Below, piece by piece: positions 1 to 10,556 of a stretch of DNA of 11,011 nt (its first letter is position 1; each line of letters starts with the position of its first letter). The DNA lies in the IMG/VR virus record IMGVR_UViG_2740892233_000013; one strand, written 5' to 3'. Made by a program: the position numbers and the translations under genes. This stretch comes from a virus (lineage: Duplodnaviria > Heunggongvirae > Uroviricota > Caudoviricetes). Under the pieces are notes generated by a model, which was not told the origin of the DNA, made no database searches, and was given only the letters and a program-made list of their open reading frames with translations.

Positions 1-1
1 C

Positions 2-413
2 CAGATACGTATTCGCGGTGAGGACACGGCACCGGAGGCGGTGTACGCCCGTCTTCACGAACAGTTGGGTGAGGGAACGGTCATCCACATTGTGCCGCGA
101 CTGGCCGGGGCCGGAAAGGGTGGACTGCAGATTGTGCTGGGGGCGGCAGCCATCGTGGGCTCTTTCTTCACTGCCGGGGCATCAATGGCGTTATGGGGTT
201 CAGCCCTGGCAGCCGGTGGTTTTTCTGCCACCACAATGCTGTTTTCACTGGGGGCCAGCATGATACTGGGTGGTGTGGCTCAGATGCTTGCCCCGAAGGC
301 AAAAACACCGGATTACCGCGCAACGGATAACGGCAGACAGAACACGTATTTTTCCTCGCTGGATAACATGATTGCCCAGGGGAACCCGATGCCGGTGCCT
401 TACGGTGAAATGC
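2..413 (+). CDS. I: Tail assembly protein I, partial (5' end outside window, 3' end runs into N gap)
   Basis: Frame translation ...AVYARLHEQLGEGTVIHIVPRLAGAGKGGLQIVLGAAAIVGSFFTAGASMALWGSALAAGGFSATTMLFSLGASMILGGVAQMLAPKAKTPDYRATDNGRQNTYFSSLDNMIAQGNPMPVPYGEM resembles lambda gpI C-terminal half (from memory). Confidence 0.85.
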
Positions 414-423
414 NNNNNNNNNN

Positions 424-661
424 TCTGGGTGGTGTGGCTCAGATGCTGGCCCCGAAGGCTAAAGTACCGGAGTACAAAAGCACGGATAACGGCAGACAGA
501 ACACGTACTTTTCCTCGCTGGATAACATGATTGCCCAGGGGAACCCGATGCCGGTGCCTTACGGTGAAATGCTGGTTGGCTCCCGGCGAATCTCCCAGGA
601 CATCAGTACCCGTGATGAAGGCGGTGACGGGAAGGTGGTGGTTATCGGGCGGCAGGCATAA
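424..661 (+). CDS. I: Tail assembly protein I, C-terminal fragment with stop (second allele, overlaps previous segment)
   Basis: LGGVAQMLAPKAKVPEYKSTDNGRQNTYFSSLDNMIAQGNPMPVPYGEMLVGSRRISQDISTRDEGGDGKVVVIGRQA, stop TAA at 659-661. Confidence 0.85.
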
Positions 662-666
662 AAGCG

Positions 667-704
667 AAAAAATCCCGCAGTGCTCACGGACAGGAACTGC
701 GGGA
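667..704 (-). terminator. A-run plus hairpin (tcccgcag ... ctgcggga) just after I stop; on the minus strand it reads as hairpin followed by U-run
   Basis: Inverted repeat 673-680 / 697-704 with A6 at 667-672; orientation fits termination of leftward transcription. Confidence 0.3.
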
Positions 705-765
705 GCGTTACGAAGATTGAGTGTAAGGAATTATTCTTATGTCACGACAAAAANNNNNNNNNNGC

Positions 766-798
766 GGAAAGGTCGTGGTTATCGGGCGGCAGGGGTAA
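766..798 (+). CDS. I: Tail assembly protein I, extreme 3' end of a third allele
   Basis: GKVVVIGRQG then TAA at 796-798; same C-terminal motif as 424..661 with a different last residue. Confidence 0.6.
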   Translation, partial: GKVVVIGRQG

Positions 799-804
799 AA
801 AGAA

Positions 805-829
805 TAAAAAAATCCCGCAGAGTTGCGGG
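805..829 (-). terminator. Variant of the post-I A-run plus hairpin (cccgca gagt tgcggg)
   Basis: A8 at 805-812 followed by 6-bp stem and 4-nt loop at 814-829; minus-strand terminator-like. Confidence 0.3.
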
Positions 830-969
830 GACAGACAAAGATTAACGTTAAGGAGTTATTTTTGTTTCTGGTGCTCGGGCAAAAAAAACATTAACGCAGA
901 GAAATTATTAGCACCACAGTCAGTTTGTGAAAATGTGAAGATATTCAGAAGTTTTATTCAATCATGATA

Positions 970-999
970 CAGGCATCCTCCGGGATGCCTGTTGTTTTT
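970..999 (+). terminator. Hairpin plus T-rich tail in I-J spacer (empty, no-sodC allele)
   Basis: caggcatcc tccg ggatgcctg (9-bp perfect stem) followed by ttgtttttg; about 180 nt upstream of J start. Confidence 0.5.
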
Positions 1000-1117
1000 G
1001 TGCGTAACAGTTATCACAGTAAAGGNNNNNNNNNNACATTAACGCAGAGAAATTATTAGCGCCACAGTCAGTTTGTGAAAATGTGAAGATATTCAGAATT
1101 TTTATTCAGTCATGATA

Positions 1118-1147
1118 CAGGCATCCTCCGGGATGCCTGTTGTTTTT
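1118..1147 (+). terminator. Same hairpin plus T-rich tail in the overlapping segment
   Basis: Identical caggcatcctccgggatgcctg + ttgtttttg; 35 nt upstream of J ATG at 1182. Confidence 0.5.
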
Positions 1148-1181
1148 GTGCGTAACAGTTATCACAGTAAAGGGTGAGACA

Positions 1182-1291
1182 ATGGGCAAAGGTGGCGGCA
1201 AGGCGCACACGCCGGTAGAGGCAAAGGACAATCTTAAGTCCACGCAGATGATGAGCGTGATTGATGCCATTGGTGAAGGGCCGATTGAAGG
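1182..1291 (+). CDS. J: Host specificity protein J, N-terminal fragment (allele with empty I-J spacer)
   Basis: ATG at 1182 preceded by aaagggtgagacaATG; [37 protein letters not shown] matches lambda gpJ N-terminus. Confidence 0.85.
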
Positions 1292-2181: not shown

Positions 2182-2194
2182 NNNNNNNNNNGCA

Positions 2195-2516
2195 ATGGGC
2201 AAAGGTGGCGGCAAGGCGCACACGCCGGTTGAGGCAAAGGACAATCTTAAGTCCACGCAGATGATGAGCGTGATTGATGCGATTGGTGAAGGGCCGATTG
2301 AAGGTCCGGTGAAGGGGCTGCAGAGTATCCTGGTGAACAAAACCCCGCTGACGGACACGGACGGTAATCCTGTGATACATGGTGTGACAGCGGTCTGGCG
2401 CGCCGGGGAGCAGGAGCAGACACCACCTGAAGGCTTTGAGTCCTCCGGGGCGGAAACCGCACTGGGCGTGGAAGTGACGAAGGCAAAGCCGGTGACGCGC
2501 ACCATTACGTCCGCGA
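2195..2516 (+). CDS. J: Host specificity protein J fragment (about aa 1-107)
   Basis: MGKGGGKAHTPVEAKD...GLQSILVNKTPLTDTDGNPVIHGVTAVWRAGEQEQTPPEGFESSGAETALGVEVTKAKPVTRTITSA. Confidence 0.9.
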
Positions 2517-2526
2517 NNNNNNNNNN

Positions 2527-3037
2527 GGCTGCAGAGTATCCTGGTGAACAAAACCCCGCTGACGGACACGGACGGCAATCCTGTGATACACGGTGTGACC
2601 GCGGTCTGGCGCGCCGGGGAGCAGGAGCAGACACCACCGGAAGGCTTTGAGTCCTCCGGAGCGGAAACCGGACTGGGCGTGGAAGTGACGAAGGCAAAGC
2701 CGGTAACGCGCACCATTACATCCGCGAACATTGACCGCCTGCGGGTCACCTTCGGGGTGCAGTCACTGTTGGAGACCACCTCAAAGGGCGACCGTAATCC
2801 CTCTTCTGTCCGACTGCTGATTCAGTTACAGCGTAACGGTAACTGGGTGACGGAAAAGGATGTCACCATTAACGGCAAGACCACCTCACAGTACCTGGCG
2901 TCGGTGATTCTGGAGAATCTGCCTGAGCGGCCCTTTAACATCCGGATGGTCCGGGAGACGGCGGACAGCACCACGGACCAGCTGCAGAACAGAACGCTGT
3001 GGTCGTCATACACCGAAATCATCGATGTGAAACAGTG
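2527..3037 (+). CDS. J: Host specificity protein J fragment (about aa 42-210)
   Basis: LQSILVNKTPL...NIDRLRVTFGVQSLLETTSKGDRNPSSVRLLIQLQRNGNWVTEKD...YTEIIDVKQ; overlaps previous segment with SNPs. Confidence 0.9.
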
Positions 3038-3047
3038 NNNNNNNNNN

Positions 3048-3472
3048 GTGCAGACCACGTCAAAGGGTGACCGAAACCCGACATCCGTCCGACTGCTGAT
3101 TCAGTTACAGCGTAACGGTAACTGGGTGACGGAAAAGGATGTCACCATTAACGGCAAGACCACCTCGCAGTTTCTGGCGTCGGTGATTCTGGATAATCTG
3201 CCTGAGCGGCCCTTTAACATCCGGATGGTCCGGGAGACAGCGGACAGCACCTCGGACCAGCTGCAGAATAAGACGCTCTGGTCGTCATACACCGAAATCA
3301 TCGATGTGAAACAGTGCTACCCGAACACGGCGATTGTGGGGCTGCAGGTGGATGCGGAGCAGTTCGGCGGTCAGCAGATGACGGTGAACTACCATATCCG
3401 CGGTCGCATCATCCAGGTGCCGTCAAACTACGACCCGGAAAAACGCACTTACAGCGGTATCTGGGACGGCAG
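3048..3472 (+). CDS. J: Host specificity protein J fragment (about aa 130-260)
   Basis: VQTTSKGDRNPTSVRLLIQLQRNGNWVTEKDVTINGKTTSQFLASVILDNLPERPFNIRMVRETADS...RGRIIQVPSNYDPEKRTYSGIWDG. Confidence 0.9.
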
Positions 3473-3482
3473 NNNNNNNNNN

Positions 3483-3992
3483 GTAATCTGCCTCCCCGTC
3501 CTTTTAACATCCGGATGGTCCGGGAGACAGCGGACAGCACCTCGGACCAGCTGCAGAATAAGACGCTCTGGTCGTCATACACCGAAATCATCGATGTGAA
3601 ACAGTGCTACCCGAACACGGCGATTGTGGGGCTGCAGGTGGATGCGGAGCAGTTTGGCGGTCAGCAGATGACGGTGAACTACCATATCCGCGGTCGCATC
3701 ATCCAGGTACCGTCAAACTATGACCCGGAAAAACGCACGTACAGCGGCATCTGGGACGGCAGCCTGAAACCGGCATACAGCAACAACCCGGCCTGGTGCC
3801 TGTGGGACATGCTGACTCACCCGCGCTACGGCATGGGAAAACGCCTGGGGGCCGCGGATGTGGACAAGTGGGCGCTGTATGCCATCGGGCAGTACTGTGA
3901 CCAGCGTGTCCCGGACGGCTTCGGAGGGACAGAGCCGCGGATGACCTTTAATGCGTACCTGTCACAACAGCGTAAGGCGTGGGACGTTCTCA
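3483..3992 (+). CDS. J: Host specificity protein J fragment (about aa 168-335)
   Basis: NLPPRPFNIRMVRETADS...CYPNTAIVGLQVDAEQFGGQQMTVNYHIRGRIIQVPSNYDPEKRTYSGIWDGSLKPAYSNNPAWCLWDMLTHPRYGMGKRLGAADVDKWALYAIGQYCDQRVPDG...QRKAWDVL. Confidence 0.9.
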
Positions 3993-4002
3993 NNNNNNNN
4001 NN

Positions 4003-4331
4003 TGGTCGCATCATTCAGGTACCGTCAAACTATGACCCGGAAAAACGCACGTACAGCGGTATCTGGGACGGCAGCCTGAAACCGGCATACAGCAACAACC
4101 CGGCCTGGTGCCTGTGGGACATGCTGACTCACCCGCGCTACGGCATGGGAAAACGTCTGGGGGCGGCAGACGTGGACAAATGGGCGCTGTATGCCATTGC
4201 GCAGTACTGCGACCAGACGGTCCCGGATGGCTTCGGGGGCACAGAGCCGCGGATGACCTTTAATGCATACCTGTCACAACAGCGTAAGGCGTGGGACGTT
4301 CTCAGTGATTTCTGCTCGGCGATGCGCTGTA
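4003..4331 (+). CDS. J: Host specificity protein J fragment (about aa 245-345)
   Basis: GRIIQVPSNYDPEKRTYSGIWDG...ALYAIAQYCDQTVPDGFGGTEPRMTFNAYLSQQRKAWDVLSDFCSAMRC. Confidence 0.9.
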
Positions 4332-4341
4332 NNNNNNNNNN

Positions 4342-4686
4342 TGGCGGCGGATGTTGACAAGTGGGCGCTGTATGCCATCGGGCAGTACTGCGACCAGACG
4401 GTCCCGGATGGTTTCGGGGGCACAGAGCCGCGGATGACCTTTAATGCGTACCTGTCACAACAGCGTAAGGCGTGGGACGTTCTCAGTGATTTCTGCTCGG
4501 CGATGCGCTGTATGCCGGTATGGAACGGCCAGACGCTGACGTTCGTTCAGGACCGCCCGTCGGATGTGGTGTGGCCGTACACCAACTGCGATGTGGTGGT
4601 GGATGATAACGGCGTGGGGTTTCGCTACAGCTTCAGCGCCCTGAAGGACCGCCACACGGCGGTGGAGGTGAATTACACCGACCCGC
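4342..4686 (+). CDS. J: Host specificity protein J fragment (about aa 290-400)
   Basis: AADVDKWALYAIGQYCDQTVPDG...MPVWNGQTLTFVQDRPSDVVWPYTNCDVVVDDNGVGFRYSFSALKDRHTAVEVNYTDP. Confidence 0.9.
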
Positions 4687-4696
4687 NNNNNNNNNN

Positions 4697-5073
4697 CCAC
4701 CCGCGCTACGGGATGGGGAAACGCCTGGGGGCCGCGGACGTGGACAAATGGGCGCTGTATGCCATCGGGCAGTACTGTGACCAGCGTGTTCCGGACGGCT
4801 TCGGAGGGACAGAGCCGCGGATGACGTTTAATGCGTACCTGTCACAGCAGCGTAAGGCGTGGGACGTTCTCAGTGATTTCTGCTCGGCGATGCGCTGTAT
4901 GCCGGTATGGAACGGCCAGACGCTGACGTTCGTTCAGGACCGTCCGTCGGATGTGGTGTGGCCGTACACCAGCAGCGATGTGGTGGTGGATGATAACGGC
5001 GTGGGGTTCCGCTACAGCTTCAGCGCCCTGAAGGACCGCCACACGGCGGTGGAGGTGAATTACACCGACCCGC
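4697..5073 (+). CDS. J: Host specificity protein J fragment (about aa 280-400)
   Basis: HPRYGMGKRLGAADVDKWALYAIGQYCDQRVPDG...VVWPYTSSDVVVDDNGVGFRYSFSALKDRHTAVEVNYTDP. Confidence 0.9.
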
Positions 5074-5083
5074 NNNNNNNNNN

Positions 5084-5647
5084 GACCGAGCCGCGGATGA
5101 CCTTTAATGCGTACCTGGCACAACAGCGTAAGGCGTGGGACGTTCTCAGTGATTTCTGCTCTGCGATGCGCTGTATGCCGGTATGGAACGGTCAGACGCT
5201 GACGTTCGTTCAGGACCGCCCGTCGGATGTGGTGTGGCCGTACACCAACAGCGATGTGGTGGTGGATGATAACGGCGTGGGGTTCCGCTACAGCTTCAGT
5301 GCCCTGAAGGACCGGCACACGGCGGTGGAGGTGAATTACACCGACCCGCAGAACGGCTGGCAGACCTCCACGGAACTGGTGGAAGACCCGGAAGCCATAC
5401 TGCGCTACGGGCGCAACCTGCTGAAGATGGATGCGTTCGGTTGCACCAGTCGCGGTCAGGCCCACCGTGCCGGGCTGTGGGTGATAAAGACCGGACTGCT
5501 GGAAACGCAGACGGTGGATTTCACGCTCGGGTCACAGGGGCTGCGTCACACACCCGGTGACATTATTGAAATCTGTGATAACGACTATGCCGGGACCATG
5601 ACCGGCGGACGTATCCTGTCCATCGATGCCGCCAGCCGCACCCTGAC
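5084..5647 (+). CDS. J: Host specificity protein J fragment (about aa 315-495)
   Basis: TEPRMTFNAYLAQQRKAWDVL...PYTNSDVVVDD...NYTDPQNGWQTSTELVEDPEAILRYGRNLLKMDAFGCTSRGQAHRAGLWVIKTGLLETQTVDFTLGSQGLRHTPGDIIEICDNDYAGTMTGGRILSIDAASRTL. Confidence 0.9.
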
Positions 5648-5657
5648 NNNNNNNNNN

Positions 5658-6167
5658 ACGCAACCTGCTGAAGATGGACGCGTTCGGCTGTACCAGCCGC
5701 GGTCAGGCCCACCGTGCCGGACTGTGGGTGATAAAGACCGAACTGCTGGAAACGCAGACGGTGGATTTCACGCTCGGGTCTCAGGGGCTGCGGCACACAC
5801 CCGGTGACATTATTGAAATCTGTGATAATGACTATGCCGGGACCCTGACCGGCGGACGTGTCCTGTCCATTGATGCTGCCACCCGCACCCTGACGCTGGA
5901 CCGTGAGGTTACCCTGCCGGAGACAGGTACATCGGCGGTGAACCTGATTAACGGCAGCGGTAAGCCGGTGAGTGTGGACATCACCGCACACCCCGCGCCG
6001 GACCGGATACAGGTCAGTACCCTGCCTGATGGTGTGGAGACATACGGGGTGTGGGGACTCTCCCTGCCGTCACTGCGCCGTCGCCTGTTCCGCTGTGTCT
6101 CCGTCCGGGAAAACACGGACGGCACCTTTGCCATCACGGCGGTGCAGCACGTACCGGAAAAAGAAGC
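5658..6167 (+). CDS. J: Host specificity protein J fragment (about aa 420-590)
   Basis: RNLLKMDAFGCTSRGQAHRAGLWVIKTELLETQTVDF...LDREVTLPETGTSAVNLINGSGKPVSVDITAHPAPDRIQVSTLPDGVETYGVWGLSLPSLRRRLFRCVSVRENTDGTFAITAVQHVPEKE. Confidence 0.9.
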
Positions 6168-6177
6168 NNNNNNNNNN

Positions 6178-6504
6178 ACTGGACCGTGAGGTGACCCTGC
6201 CGGAGACAGGTGCCGCCACGGTGAACCTGATTAACGGCAGCGGTAAGCCGGTGAGCGTGGCCATCACTGCACACCCCGCGCCGGACCGGATACAGGTCAG
6301 CACCCTGCCTGATGGTGTGGAGACATACGGTGTATGGGGACTCTCCCTGCCGTCACTGCGTCGTCGCCTGTTCCGCTGTGTCTCCATCCGGGAAAACACG
6401 GACGGCACCTTTGCCATCACGGCGGTGCAGCACGTACCGGAAAAGGAAGCCATCGTGGATAACGGGGCCAGCTTTGAGCCGCAGTCAGGCACCCTGAACA
6501 GCGT
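6178..6504 (+). CDS. J: Host specificity protein J fragment (about aa 495-605)
   Basis: LDREVTLPETGAATVNLINGSGKPVSVAITAHPAPDRIQVSTLPDGVETYGVWGLSLPSLRRRLFRCVSIRENTDGTFAITAVQHVPEKEAIVDNGASFEPQSGTLNSV. Confidence 0.9.
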
Positions 6505-6514
6505 NNNNNNNNNN

Positions 6515-6723
6515 TACCCTGCCGGATGGTGTGGAGACATACGGTGTGTGGGGGCTTTCCCTGCCGTCACTGCGTCGTCGCCTGTTTCGCTGTGTCTGCA
6601 TCCGGGAAAACACGGACGGCACTTTTGCCATCACGGCGGTGCAGCATGTGCCGGAAAAAGAAGCCATCGTGGATAACGGGGCCAGCTTTGAGCCGCAGTC
6701 AGGCACCCTGAACAGCGTCATCC
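6515..6723 (+). CDS. J: Host specificity protein J fragment (about aa 540-605)
   Basis: TLPDGVETYGVWGLSLPSLRRRLFRCVCIRENTDGTFAITAVQHVPEKEAIVDNGASFEPQSGTLNSVI. Confidence 0.88.
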
Positions 6724-6733
6724 NNNNNNNNNN

Positions 6734-6996
6734 TACCTTTGCCATCACGGCAGTGCAGCATGTGCCGGAAAAAGAAGCCATTGTGGATAACGGGGCCAGC
6801 TTTGAGCCACTGTCCGGTTCGCTGAACAGCGTCATCCCGCCGGCAGTACAGCACCTGACGGTGGAGGTGAGCGCGGCTGACGGTCAGTATCTGGCACAGG
6901 CGAAATGGGACACGCCGCGGGTGGTGAAGGGTGTGCGCTTCAGTCTGCGCCTGACCAGCGGAAGCGGAGAAGACAGCCGTCTGGTGACCACCGCCA
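6734..6996 (+). CDS. J: Host specificity protein J fragment (about aa 580-665)
   Basis: [87 protein letters not shown]. Confidence 0.88.
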
Positions 6997-7006
6997 NNNN
7001 NNNNNN

Positions 7007-7188
7007 TATTCCACCGGCAGTGCAGCACCTCACGGTGGAGGTGAGCGCGGCTGACGGCCAGTATCTGGCACAGGCGAAATGGGACACGCCGCGGGTGGTG
7101 AAGGGGGTGCGCTTCAGTCTGCGACTGACCAGCGGAAGCGGAGAAGACAGCCGTCTGGTGACCACCGCCATCACTGCGGATACAGAGC
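7007..7188 (+). CDS. J: Host specificity protein J fragment (about aa 607-670)
   Basis: [60 protein letters not shown]. Confidence 0.88.
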
Positions 7189-7198
7189 NNNNNNNNNN

Positions 7199-7395
7199 AC
7201 CGGCAGCGCCTGCCGGTGTTGAACTGACGCCGGGGTATTTTCAGATAACGGCAGTCCCGAAACTGACCATTTATGACCCGACGGTGCAGTTTGAGTTCTG
7301 GTTTTCGGAGGCAAAAATTGCAGACACATCTCAGGTGGAAACCTCTGCCCGTTATCTGGGGACCGGCAGTCAGTGGAGTGTCTCCGGTCCGCACA
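7199..7395 (+). CDS. J: Host specificity protein J fragment (about aa 705-770)
   Basis: [65 protein letters not shown]. Confidence 0.88.
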
Positions 7396-7405
7396 NNNNN
7401 NNNNN

Positions 7406-7475
7406 GCCGCACAGGTGGAAACCTCTGCCCGTTATCTGGGGACCGGCAGTCAGTGGAGTGTCTCCGGTCCGCACA
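7406..7475 (+). CDS. J: Host specificity protein J short fragment (about aa 750-770)
   Basis: [23 protein letters not shown]; 70-bp segment duplicating the end of the previous segment. Confidence 0.75.
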
Positions 7476-7485
7476 NNNNNNNNNN

Positions 7486-7834
7486 TCTCACGGTGGAGGT
7501 GAGCGCCGCTGACGGGCAGTATCTGGCGCAGGTGAAATGGGACACGCCGCGGGTGGTGAAGGGGGTGCGCTTCAGTCTGCGCCTGACCAGCGGAAGCGGA
7601 GAAGACAGCCGTCTGGTGACCACCGCCATCACCGCGGATACAGAGCACCGTTTCAGCGGTCTGCCGCCGGGGGAATACACCCTGACGGTCAGGGCGATTA
7701 ACAGTTATGGCCAGCAGGGGGAACCGGCCACCACCACGTTCAGGATTAATGCACCTGCGGTACCCGCCACGATTGAGCTGACACCGGGCTATTTTCAGAT
7801 AACAGCGGTCCCGCGTCTTGCGGTGTATGACCCG
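7486..7834 (+). CDS. J: Host specificity protein J fragment (about aa 612-727), fibronectin type III-like region
   Basis: [116 protein letters not shown]. Confidence 0.9.
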
Positions 7835-7844
7835 NNNNNNNNNN

Positions 7845-8465
7845 ATCGTTTCAGTGGTCTGCCGCTCGGGGAATACACCCTGACAGTCAGGGCAATTAAC
7901 AGTTATGGCCAGCAGGGCGAACCGGCCACCACCACCTTCCGGATTAACGCGCCAGCAAAACCCGCCACCATTGAACTGACGCCGGGGTATTTTCAGATAA
8001 CGGCGGTCCCGCGTCTTGCGGTGTATGACCCGACGGTACAGTTTGAGTTCTGGTTTTCGGAGACAAAAATCGCAGACACATCTCAGGTGGAAACCTCTGC
8101 CCGTTATCTGGGGACCGGCAGTCAGTGGAGTGTATCCGGCCCGCACATTAAGCCCGGGAAGGATTTCTGGTTTTACGTGCGCAGCGTCAATCTGGTGGGC
8201 AAGTCTGCGTTTGTGGAAGCCAGCGGGCAGGCCAGCAATGATGCAGAAGGGTATCTGGACTTTTTCAGAGGAGAAATAGGAAAAACGCATCTGGCTCAGG
8301 GGTTGTGGGAACTGATAGATAACAGCCAGCTTGCAGATGAGATGGCGGAGATGAAGACCAGCATCACGGAAACCCGCAATGAAATCACACAGACGGTCAA
8401 CAAAACGCTGGAGGACCAGAGCGCCACCATACAGCAGATACAGCGCGTGCAGAAGGACACAAATG
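7845..8465 (+). CDS. J: Host specificity protein J fragment (about aa 672-860)
   Basis: [140 protein letters not shown]...[11 protein letters not shown]. Confidence 0.9.
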
Positions 8466-8475
8466 NNNNNNNNNN

Positions 8476-9623
8476 TTAAGCCCGGAAAGGATTTCTGGTT
8501 TTATGTGCGCAGCGTCAACCTGGTGGGTAAATCTGCTTTTGTGGAAGCCAGTGGACGGGCGAGCAATGATGCTGCGGGCTATCTGGAACTTTTCCGGGAA
8601 AAGATAGGAAAAACGCATCTGGCAGAGGCGCTGTGGGCAGAGATTGACAACAGTCAGCTGAAGGACGAGATGGCGGAAATGCAGACCACCATCACAGAAA
8701 CCCGCAATGAAATCACACAGACGGTCAGTAAAACGCTGGAAGACCAGAGCGCCACCATTCAGCAGATACAGCGCGTGCAGAAGGACACAAATGATGACCT
8801 GGCTGCGCTGTACATGCTGAAGGTTCAAAAAACGAAAGACGGCATTCCCTATGTGGCCGGGATTGGTGCAGGGATTGAGGATACTGATGGCCAGCCACTG
8901 AGCAACATACTGCTGCTGGCTGACCGTATCGCGATGATAAATCCGGAGAGCGGCAACAGCACGCCGTTATTTGTGGCGCAGGGGAATCAGCTGTTCATGA
9001 ACGACGTGTTCCTGAAGCGACTGTTTGCGGTGAGTATCACGTCATCCGGCAACCCCCCGACGTTTTCCCTGACGCCGGAAGGGAAGCTGACAGCCAGGAA
9101 CGCGGATATCAGCGGAGCAATTACCGCGAATACCGGCACGCTCAATAATGTCACCATTAACGAGAACTGTGTCATCAGAGGGAAACTGTCTGCAAACCAG
9201 ATTGAAGGCGACCTGGTGAAGACGGTGGGGAAAGCCTTTCCCCGGAATAACAGTTATGCCAGCGGGACGGTAACCGTCACAGTTTACGATGACCAGGGCT
9301 TCGACCGGCAGATCATCATTCCCCCGGTGCTGTTTCGCGGGACGAAACACCAGAATTTCAACAGCCCGAATCAGCAGTCGTACTGGTATTCCACCTGTAA
9401 GCTGCAGGTGCTGAAGAACGGGGTTGAGATTTTCCATGAACCGGCAACGGATGTCAGCCGGGTGTTCTCATCGGTGATAGATATGCCGGCAGGGCGGGGT
9501 CATGTCACCCTGACGTTTAATGTGTCGTCGGCCGGTGCGAACAACTGGACGCCGACAACGTACATCAGTGATTTACTGGTTGTGGTGATGAAAAAATCCA
9601 CAGCAGGTATCAGTATCAGCTGA
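8476..9623 (+). CDS. J: Host specificity protein J, C-terminal third with stop (receptor-binding domain allele 1)
   Basis: [39 protein letters not shown]...[71 protein letters not shown]...[21 protein letters not shown], stop TGA 9621-9623; matches lambda gpJ C-terminus (..[18 protein letters not shown]..). Confidence 0.9.
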
Positions 9624-9673
9624 ATTTTATAACCCAGAANNNNNNNNNNATTGCAGAAAAGCGAGAGGTAATT

Positions 9674-9703
9674 ATGCGTAAACTTTATGCCGCCATTTTG
9701 TCC
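9674..9703 (+). CDS. lom: Lom/Ail/PagC-family outer membrane protein, first 10 codons (segment ends in N gap)
   Basis: gagaggtaattATG, MRKLYAAILS; same sequence as 10349..10378. Confidence 0.7.
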
Positions 9704-9713
9704 NNNNNNNNNN

Positions 9714-10281
<568 letters not shown>

Positions 10282-10299
10282 ATTTTATAACCCAGAACG

Positions 10300-10324
10300 G
10301 GCGTCAGAAATGACGCCTTTTTTT
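10300..10324 (+). terminator. Rho-independent terminator after J
   Basis: ggcgtca gaaa tgacgcc (7-bp perfect stem, GAAA loop) followed by T7 at 10318-10324; 19 nt after J stop. Confidence 0.75.
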
Positions 10325-10348
10325 ATTGCAGAAAAGCGAGAGGTAATT

Positions 10349-10382
10349 ATGCGTAAACTTTATGCCGCCATTTTGTCCGCAG
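10349..10382 (+). CDS. lom: Lom/Ail/PagC-family outer membrane protein, 5' fragment
   Basis: SD gagagg 6 nt upstream of ATG at 10349; MRKLYAAILSA (start of signal peptide). Confidence 0.8.
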
Positions 10383-10392
10383 NNNNNNNNNN

Positions 10393-10556
10393 GTTTGTGC
10401 AGCCATTTTGTCCGCAGCCATCTGTCTGGCCGTATCCGGTGCGCCTGCATGGGCGTCTGAGCAGCAGGCCACGCTGAGCGCGGGGTATCTTCATGCCCGG
10501 ACGAACGCTCCCGGTAGCGATAATCTTAACGGGATTAACGTGAAATACCGTTATGA
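10393..10556 (+). CDS. lom: Lom/Ail/PagC-family outer membrane protein fragment (signal peptide and first strands)
   Basis: AILSAAICLAVSGAPAWASEQQATLSAGYLHARTNAPGSDNLNGINVKYRYE; lambda Lom has ..KGINVKYRYE.. Confidence 0.85.

Follow-up and report, generated by a model that had tools for sequence, protein, structure and literature searches.

Overlapping fragments of a lambdoid tail locus in an 11,011-base scaffold record at least five templates of the tail tip gene J

The window, by which is meant the whole stretch of 11,011 bases analyzed here, contains 28 pieces of called sequence (S01 to S28) and, between them, 27 gaps of exactly 10 N each. When mapped to finished Escherichia coli genomes, all 28 pieces fall on one lambdoid tail locus, with a common orientation and an order that broadly follows the locus. 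In this locus, the 3' end of the tail-assembly gene I is followed by the I-J spacer, a gpJ gene of 3.4 kb (annotated in finished genomes as 'phage attachment tail tip protein J'), and an Ail/Lom gene. Piece coordinates are expressed on a reference locus, L001, in which J occupies positions 6492-9965. The reference J contains the FNIII-A_GpJ, Phage-tail_3, Ig_J, Ig_J_second, Phage_Tail_Tip, and Ig_GpJ_C domains, all scoring far above their Pfam cut-offs, and pieces S06 to S25 are 82-100% identical to it. The gene order follows the lambdoid synteny L, K (C40 peptidase), I, J, lom, with S01 and S02 falling in gene I and S26 to S28 in the Ail/Lom gene. In its full domain set and in its flanks, the tail-assembly gene I and Lom, the reference J resembles gpJ of phage lambda (TipJ family), whereas the window is without any single intact J and holds allelic fragments only. 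The features are listed below by window coordinates and strand, with the corresponding L001 positions; G-R, A-T, and G-T denote versions of an upstream protein motif in J, and NC, SS, and NS denote the residue pairs encoded at a downstream site.

1-1291, plus strand: S01 to S04, alternative versions of the gene I C-terminal end, the I-J spacer, and the J start (L001 5755-6601, depth 1-3)
1302-2181, minus strand: S05, a variant I-J junction with sodC (Pfam Sod_Cu), followed by the J start on the plus strand
2192-3472, plus strand: S06 to S08, overlapping alleles of N-terminal gpJ fragments, FNIII-A region (L001 6489-7279)
3483-3992, plus strand: S09, gpJ fragment covering approximately J residues 170-339, allele G-R (L001 7000-7509)
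4003-4331, plus strand: S10, gpJ fragment, allele A-T (L001 7208-7536)
4342-4686, plus strand: S11, gpJ fragment, alleles G-T and NC (L001 7366-7710)
4697-5073, plus strand: S12, gpJ fragment, alleles G-R and SS (L001 7334-7710)
5084-5647, plus strand: S13, gpJ fragment with the Phage-tail_3 domain (PF13550, E = 3.6e-40), allele NS (L001 7445-8008)
5658-9639, plus strand: S14 to S23, overlapping alleles of central and C-terminal gpJ fragments (L001 7772-9984, depth 1-4)
9650-11011, plus strand: S24 to S28, covering the alternative receptor-binding end of J (S25), the spacer between J and lom, and alleles of Lom (Pfam matches Ig_GpJ_C and Ail_Lom)

Because the pieces overlap one another on L001, the window is not a continuous sequence but strings together several different versions of a single locus. 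The versions differ throughout. Overlapping pairs among S01 to S04 are 82-98% identical, those among S06 to S08 are 93-96% identical, and every overlapping pair among S14 to S23 differs, with the exception of S19 and S20, which have their final 64 nt in common. The greatest depth in the whole window is five, reached at L001 7445-7509 within the J pieces S09 to S13. Taken at face value, the window has one J segment recurring head-to-tail in a single orientation, as would be expected if parts of J were truly duplicated, in tandem or dispersed, inside one gene, or if a system such as a diversity-generating retroelement caused programmed hypervariation of J. This explanation is extremely unlikely, as a 10-N gap stands at every repeat boundary and, with S09 to S13 taken together as one query, all five fall on the same 1,008-bp stretch (L001 7000-8008) of a normal 3.4-kb gpJ in 4,134 finished genomes and in 212 phage records.

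Pieces S09 to S13 are the part of the window for which a number of templates had been proposed, and the sequence features cited in that proposal are all present. The codon pair aac tgc occurs at 4584-4589 in S11, agc agc at 4971-4976 in S12, and aac agc at 5247-5252 in S13. The upstream motif is ALYAIGQYCDQR in both S09 and S12 (G-R), ALYAIAQYCDQT in S10 (A-T), and ALYAIGQYCDQT in S11 (G-T). The segments overlap as had been described, and the ranges quoted for them are exactly those of the N-delimited pieces. Chance is not at issue here, because codon pairs and motifs are exact sequence states. The original prediction, that these haplotypes come from at least three templates, is upheld, since distinct sequences at one homologous position need distinct templates, and it proves to be a conservative bound. 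Although S09 and S12 have the same G-R protein motif, they show 8 nucleotide differences over their 176-nt overlap. All ten pairs that can be formed from S09 to S13 differ, with 2 to 20 mismatches per overlap, and the 65 nt of L001 7445-7509 are covered by all five pieces with five mutually different strings. Because five sequences differ over one position, and one template has one sequence there, no fewer than five J templates, rather than three, were present in the sequenced DNA. The two variable sites had also been offered as independent evidence, which they are not: S11 and S12 each span both, and jointly the sites give three haplotypes at the protein level. Recombination was considered as an explanation for the third haplotype and is not required, as each pair of sites shows only three of the four combinations that could arise.

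One protein difference in this region was absent from the earlier account. S13 has a private serine-to-alanine substitution at J residue 330 (codon at approximately 5117-5119), reading AYLAQQRK where S09 to S12 read AYLSQQRK.

The nature of the differences and their recurrence elsewhere bear on whether the haplotypes might be artefacts in part, arising from consensus or sequencing error or from chimeric nodes, with only one or two true templates behind them. Among the columns covered by at least two pieces in S06 to S18, third codon positions account for 102 of the 131 that are variable (78%); transitions account for 78 of the 131, and every substitution type occurs. Within S09 to S13, 30 of 35 variable codons are synonymous. 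Judged on the sequences, this pattern is the signature of diverged functional paralogues and not of error. It also speaks against hypervariation, since the differences are gene-wide, mostly synonymous, and of all substitution types, with no adenine-specific pattern. A diversity-generating retroelement was considered by its usual marks, a short variable repeat and adenine-specific substitutions, and was rejected in view of the 78 transitions among 131 variable columns and the 78% share of third positions.

The alleles themselves are real. Many finished genomes, among them those of O26:H11 11368, O55:H7 CB9615, and O157:H7 SS17, match S11 perfectly along its 345 nt, and 308 records reach 99% identity or more. 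S12 has perfect matches in 35 finished genomes. S10 is matched at best at 99.4% in a finished genome, with 72 records at 99% or more, and its first ∼200 nt recur exactly in an independent IMG/VR contig (L007), up to the end of that contig. The best finished-genome matches of S13 and S09 are 99.8% and 99.6%, respectively. An artefactual origin could draw on the finding that none of 5,426 finished E. coli genomes gave a 100% full-length match to S09, S10, or S13, and on the coincidence of the branch between S24 and S25 with a T6/T7 homopolymer difference. It is nonetheless very improbable, given that the overlaps differ at 2-20 positions and not by single errors, that the differences are concentrated at third codon positions and are largely synonymous, that S11 and S12 occur exactly in many independent finished genomes and S10 does so for ∼200 nt in L007, and that NC, SS, and NS all exist in a finished chromosome. 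Bubble-popping in de Bruijn-graph assemblers may give slightly chimeric nodes, an effect that could reduce the count of nodes found together but could not increase it.

The way in which the pieces begin and end identifies how they were made. Ten of them (S01, S03, S09, S10, S11, S12, S17, S19, S20, and S23) end exactly 64 nt past the last mismatch with a sibling, and none extends more than 64 nt past it. S09 and S10, for example, each stop 64 nt beyond their last difference from S11, and S11 and S12 have a common end base 64 nt past their last mutual difference. At the other end, the first base differs from that of a sibling in 19 of the 27 non-first pieces, and is typically a third-codon-position variant. 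The piece boundaries are thus those of de Bruijn-graph nodes with k = 65, each written without its first k-1 bases. In the constant 10-N gaps, the starts at private bases, the ends at k-1 = 64 nt, and the chaining of allelic nodes in rough positional order, the window resembles the fragmentation of repeats by short-read de Bruijn assembly. Velvet outputs node sequences without their first k-1 bases and writes gaps of less than 10 bp as 10 N, and we infer that the assembler was Velvet or a Velvet-style program. A literature search gave no support for these conventions of Velvet, including that of the 10-N gap.

The order of the pieces does not strictly follow their position in J. S11 precedes S12, S19 and S20 precede S21 and S22, and S24 precedes S25, so that the blocks at window positions 4342-5073, 7199-8465, and 9650-10382 are out of order. 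These inversions are consistent with imprecise distance estimates by a scaffolder.

A finished chromosome shows that haplotypes of this kind coexist in one genome. The chromosome of strain 2013C-3277 (NZ_CP027331.1) carries NC, SS, and NS in three separate gpJ genes. At 0.47 Mb lies a J identical to S11 (NC and G-T), which is truncated by ISEc31 and belongs to a degraded prophage; at 1.00 Mb lies a J identical to S12 (SS and G-R); and at 1.32 Mb lies an S13-like J (98.9% identity; NS and G-R). The SS and NS copies have the full L-K-I-J-lom context, whereas the NC copy has only lom and a tail-fibre gene downstream of J. In the extracted NC locus (L003, NZ_CP027331.1 469042-477386), the truncation by ISEc31 is N-terminal, and the truncated J adjoins a broken head-protease gene. 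Because the NC copy in 2013C-3277 is an ISEc31-truncated J, counts of J haplotypes include defective prophage remnants. The original prediction had equated the haplotypes with prophage copies, which is plausible in that the three coexist in finished 2013C-3277, but the term must be widened to include such remnants. The window shows one mark of polylysogeny, several differing J sequences at a single homologous site; a second mark, separate loci within one genome, is seen in 2013C-3277.

The number of J copies in a single genome can be considerable. Finished genomes that have J carry it at 1-14 places (median 2-3); 2013C-3277 has 9 J places, and the STEC genomes in the match lists have 8-13. Genomes of the STEC and EPEC kind have 8-14 J-bearing prophages or prophage remnants. 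The window is like the EHEC prophage pool, represented by O157:H7 Sakai Sp3-Sp15 and by O26, O111, O103, and O145 STEC, in that many lambdoid prophages there share near-identical tail genes, and the exact S11 and S12 alleles are found in such genomes. It is unlike that pool in showing neither chromosomal positions nor a single-strain origin for its copies. In O157 Sakai, 18 prophages are present, 11 of them lambdoid, and their morphogenetic genes are nearly identical (PMC2669165).

The templates could instead have come from more than one organism, if the culture was mixed, the isolate contaminated, or the sample metagenomic, in which case the haplotypes would represent strains or free phages. 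Nothing in the window anchors a piece to a chromosomal site, and no single genome in the finished-genome collection has all five pieces exactly; in the closest group, formed by 2013C-3277 and its relatives, S11 and S12 are present at 100% and the relatives carry S09 at 98.4%. An exact 81-nt segment of S10 had no match among genome contigs and matched three IMG/VR contigs, none of them the source of the window, and an exact look-up of the X-containing open reading frame at 4263-5807 was likewise without a match. A mixed source is nevertheless unlikely. Five copies are well inside the range of a single genome, which extends to 14 places, and the finished chromosome of 2013C-3277 has the three protein haplotypes together. 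In addition, a junction-specific pattern across a 10-N gap was not found in the JGI metagenome collection, and paired-read scaffolding at k = 65 would be typical of isolate pipelines. A single polylysogenic, STEC/EPEC-like E. coli appears to be much the likelier source.

The explanation that best accommodates these observations, to which we assign a probability of roughly 85%, is that the window is a scaffold of k = 65 nodes from a tangle of lambdoid-prophage tail genes with at least five J templates, likely from one polylysogenic E. coli. Several lambdoid prophages with 90-99% identical I, gpJ, and lom genes would form a repeat 'tangle' under short-read assembly, in which each node would represent sequence private to a single J paralogue or to some of the paralogues. 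Links from paired reads would then set allelic nodes side by side, producing the interleaved appearance, and the joins between nodes would be written as minimum-length gaps of 10 N. A more specific version of this scaffold reading stands at about even odds: that a single strain carried at least five J-bearing lambdoid elements, that S09, S10, and S13 represent new mosaic J variants formed by recombination between resident prophages, and that two receptor-binding ends were present. Lambdoid polylysogeny in E. coli, and the assembly tangle that results from it, are already well known.

The main value of the analysis is therefore as a caution about data quality, in that the window is unfit for analysis as a continuous sequence. 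Its apparent repeats, its long X-containing open reading frames, and its 'tandem' J segments are products of scaffolding. In biological terms it shows no more than the presence of at least five lambda-type J genes in the sequenced DNA, as is usual among Shiga-toxin-producing E. coli and related strains; this multiplicity of J genes explains why short-read assemblies of such strains break in the prophage tail regions. For a draft assembly, counting the distinct graph nodes in a column quickly gives a minimum number of lambdoid prophages, and the boundary signature at k = 65 reveals the method of assembly from the sequence alone.

The pieces on either side of S09 to S13 add detail on how the J loci differ. 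Among the alternative I-J junction pieces S02 to S05, only S05 (1302-2181) contains sodC, a complete gene at 1400-1927 on the minus strand, between gene I and J (Pfam Sod_Cu, E = 3.9e-32). This sodC looks like a prophage cargo gene. Two IMG/VR contigs, L006 and L008, match S05 at 99.9% identity.

At the other end of J, two C-terminal ends are present, S23 (8476-9639) and S25 (9714-10382), which are 72% identical over 584 nt. Of the two, S25 was scanned against Pfam and scores as the Ig_GpJ_C receptor-binding domain (E = 1.6e-37). The presence of two receptor-binding ends sets the window apart from lambda gpJ, and the J copies probably do not all have one receptor specificity.

The J-lom junction shows smaller differences. 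S24 (9650-9703) is an exact 54-nt duplicate of positions 10325-10378 in S25, and the J-lom terminator hairpin, just upstream, has 7 T in S25 versus 6 T in six comparison loci. The branch between S24 and S25 may be due to this difference in homopolymer length, be it real or a sequencing error. A deletion of the terminator joining S23 to S24 was considered and rejected, as the hairpin is kept in all comparison loci and the difference lies in the T6/T7 run. The Lom signal peptide occurs in two alleles, MRKLYAAILS in S25 (10349-10382) and ...CAAILS in S26 (10393-10440). Finally, S28 matches Ail_Lom (Pfam, E = 1.5e-67), and S27 and S28 are likewise alleles of part of Lom, differing at 4 of 76 nt.
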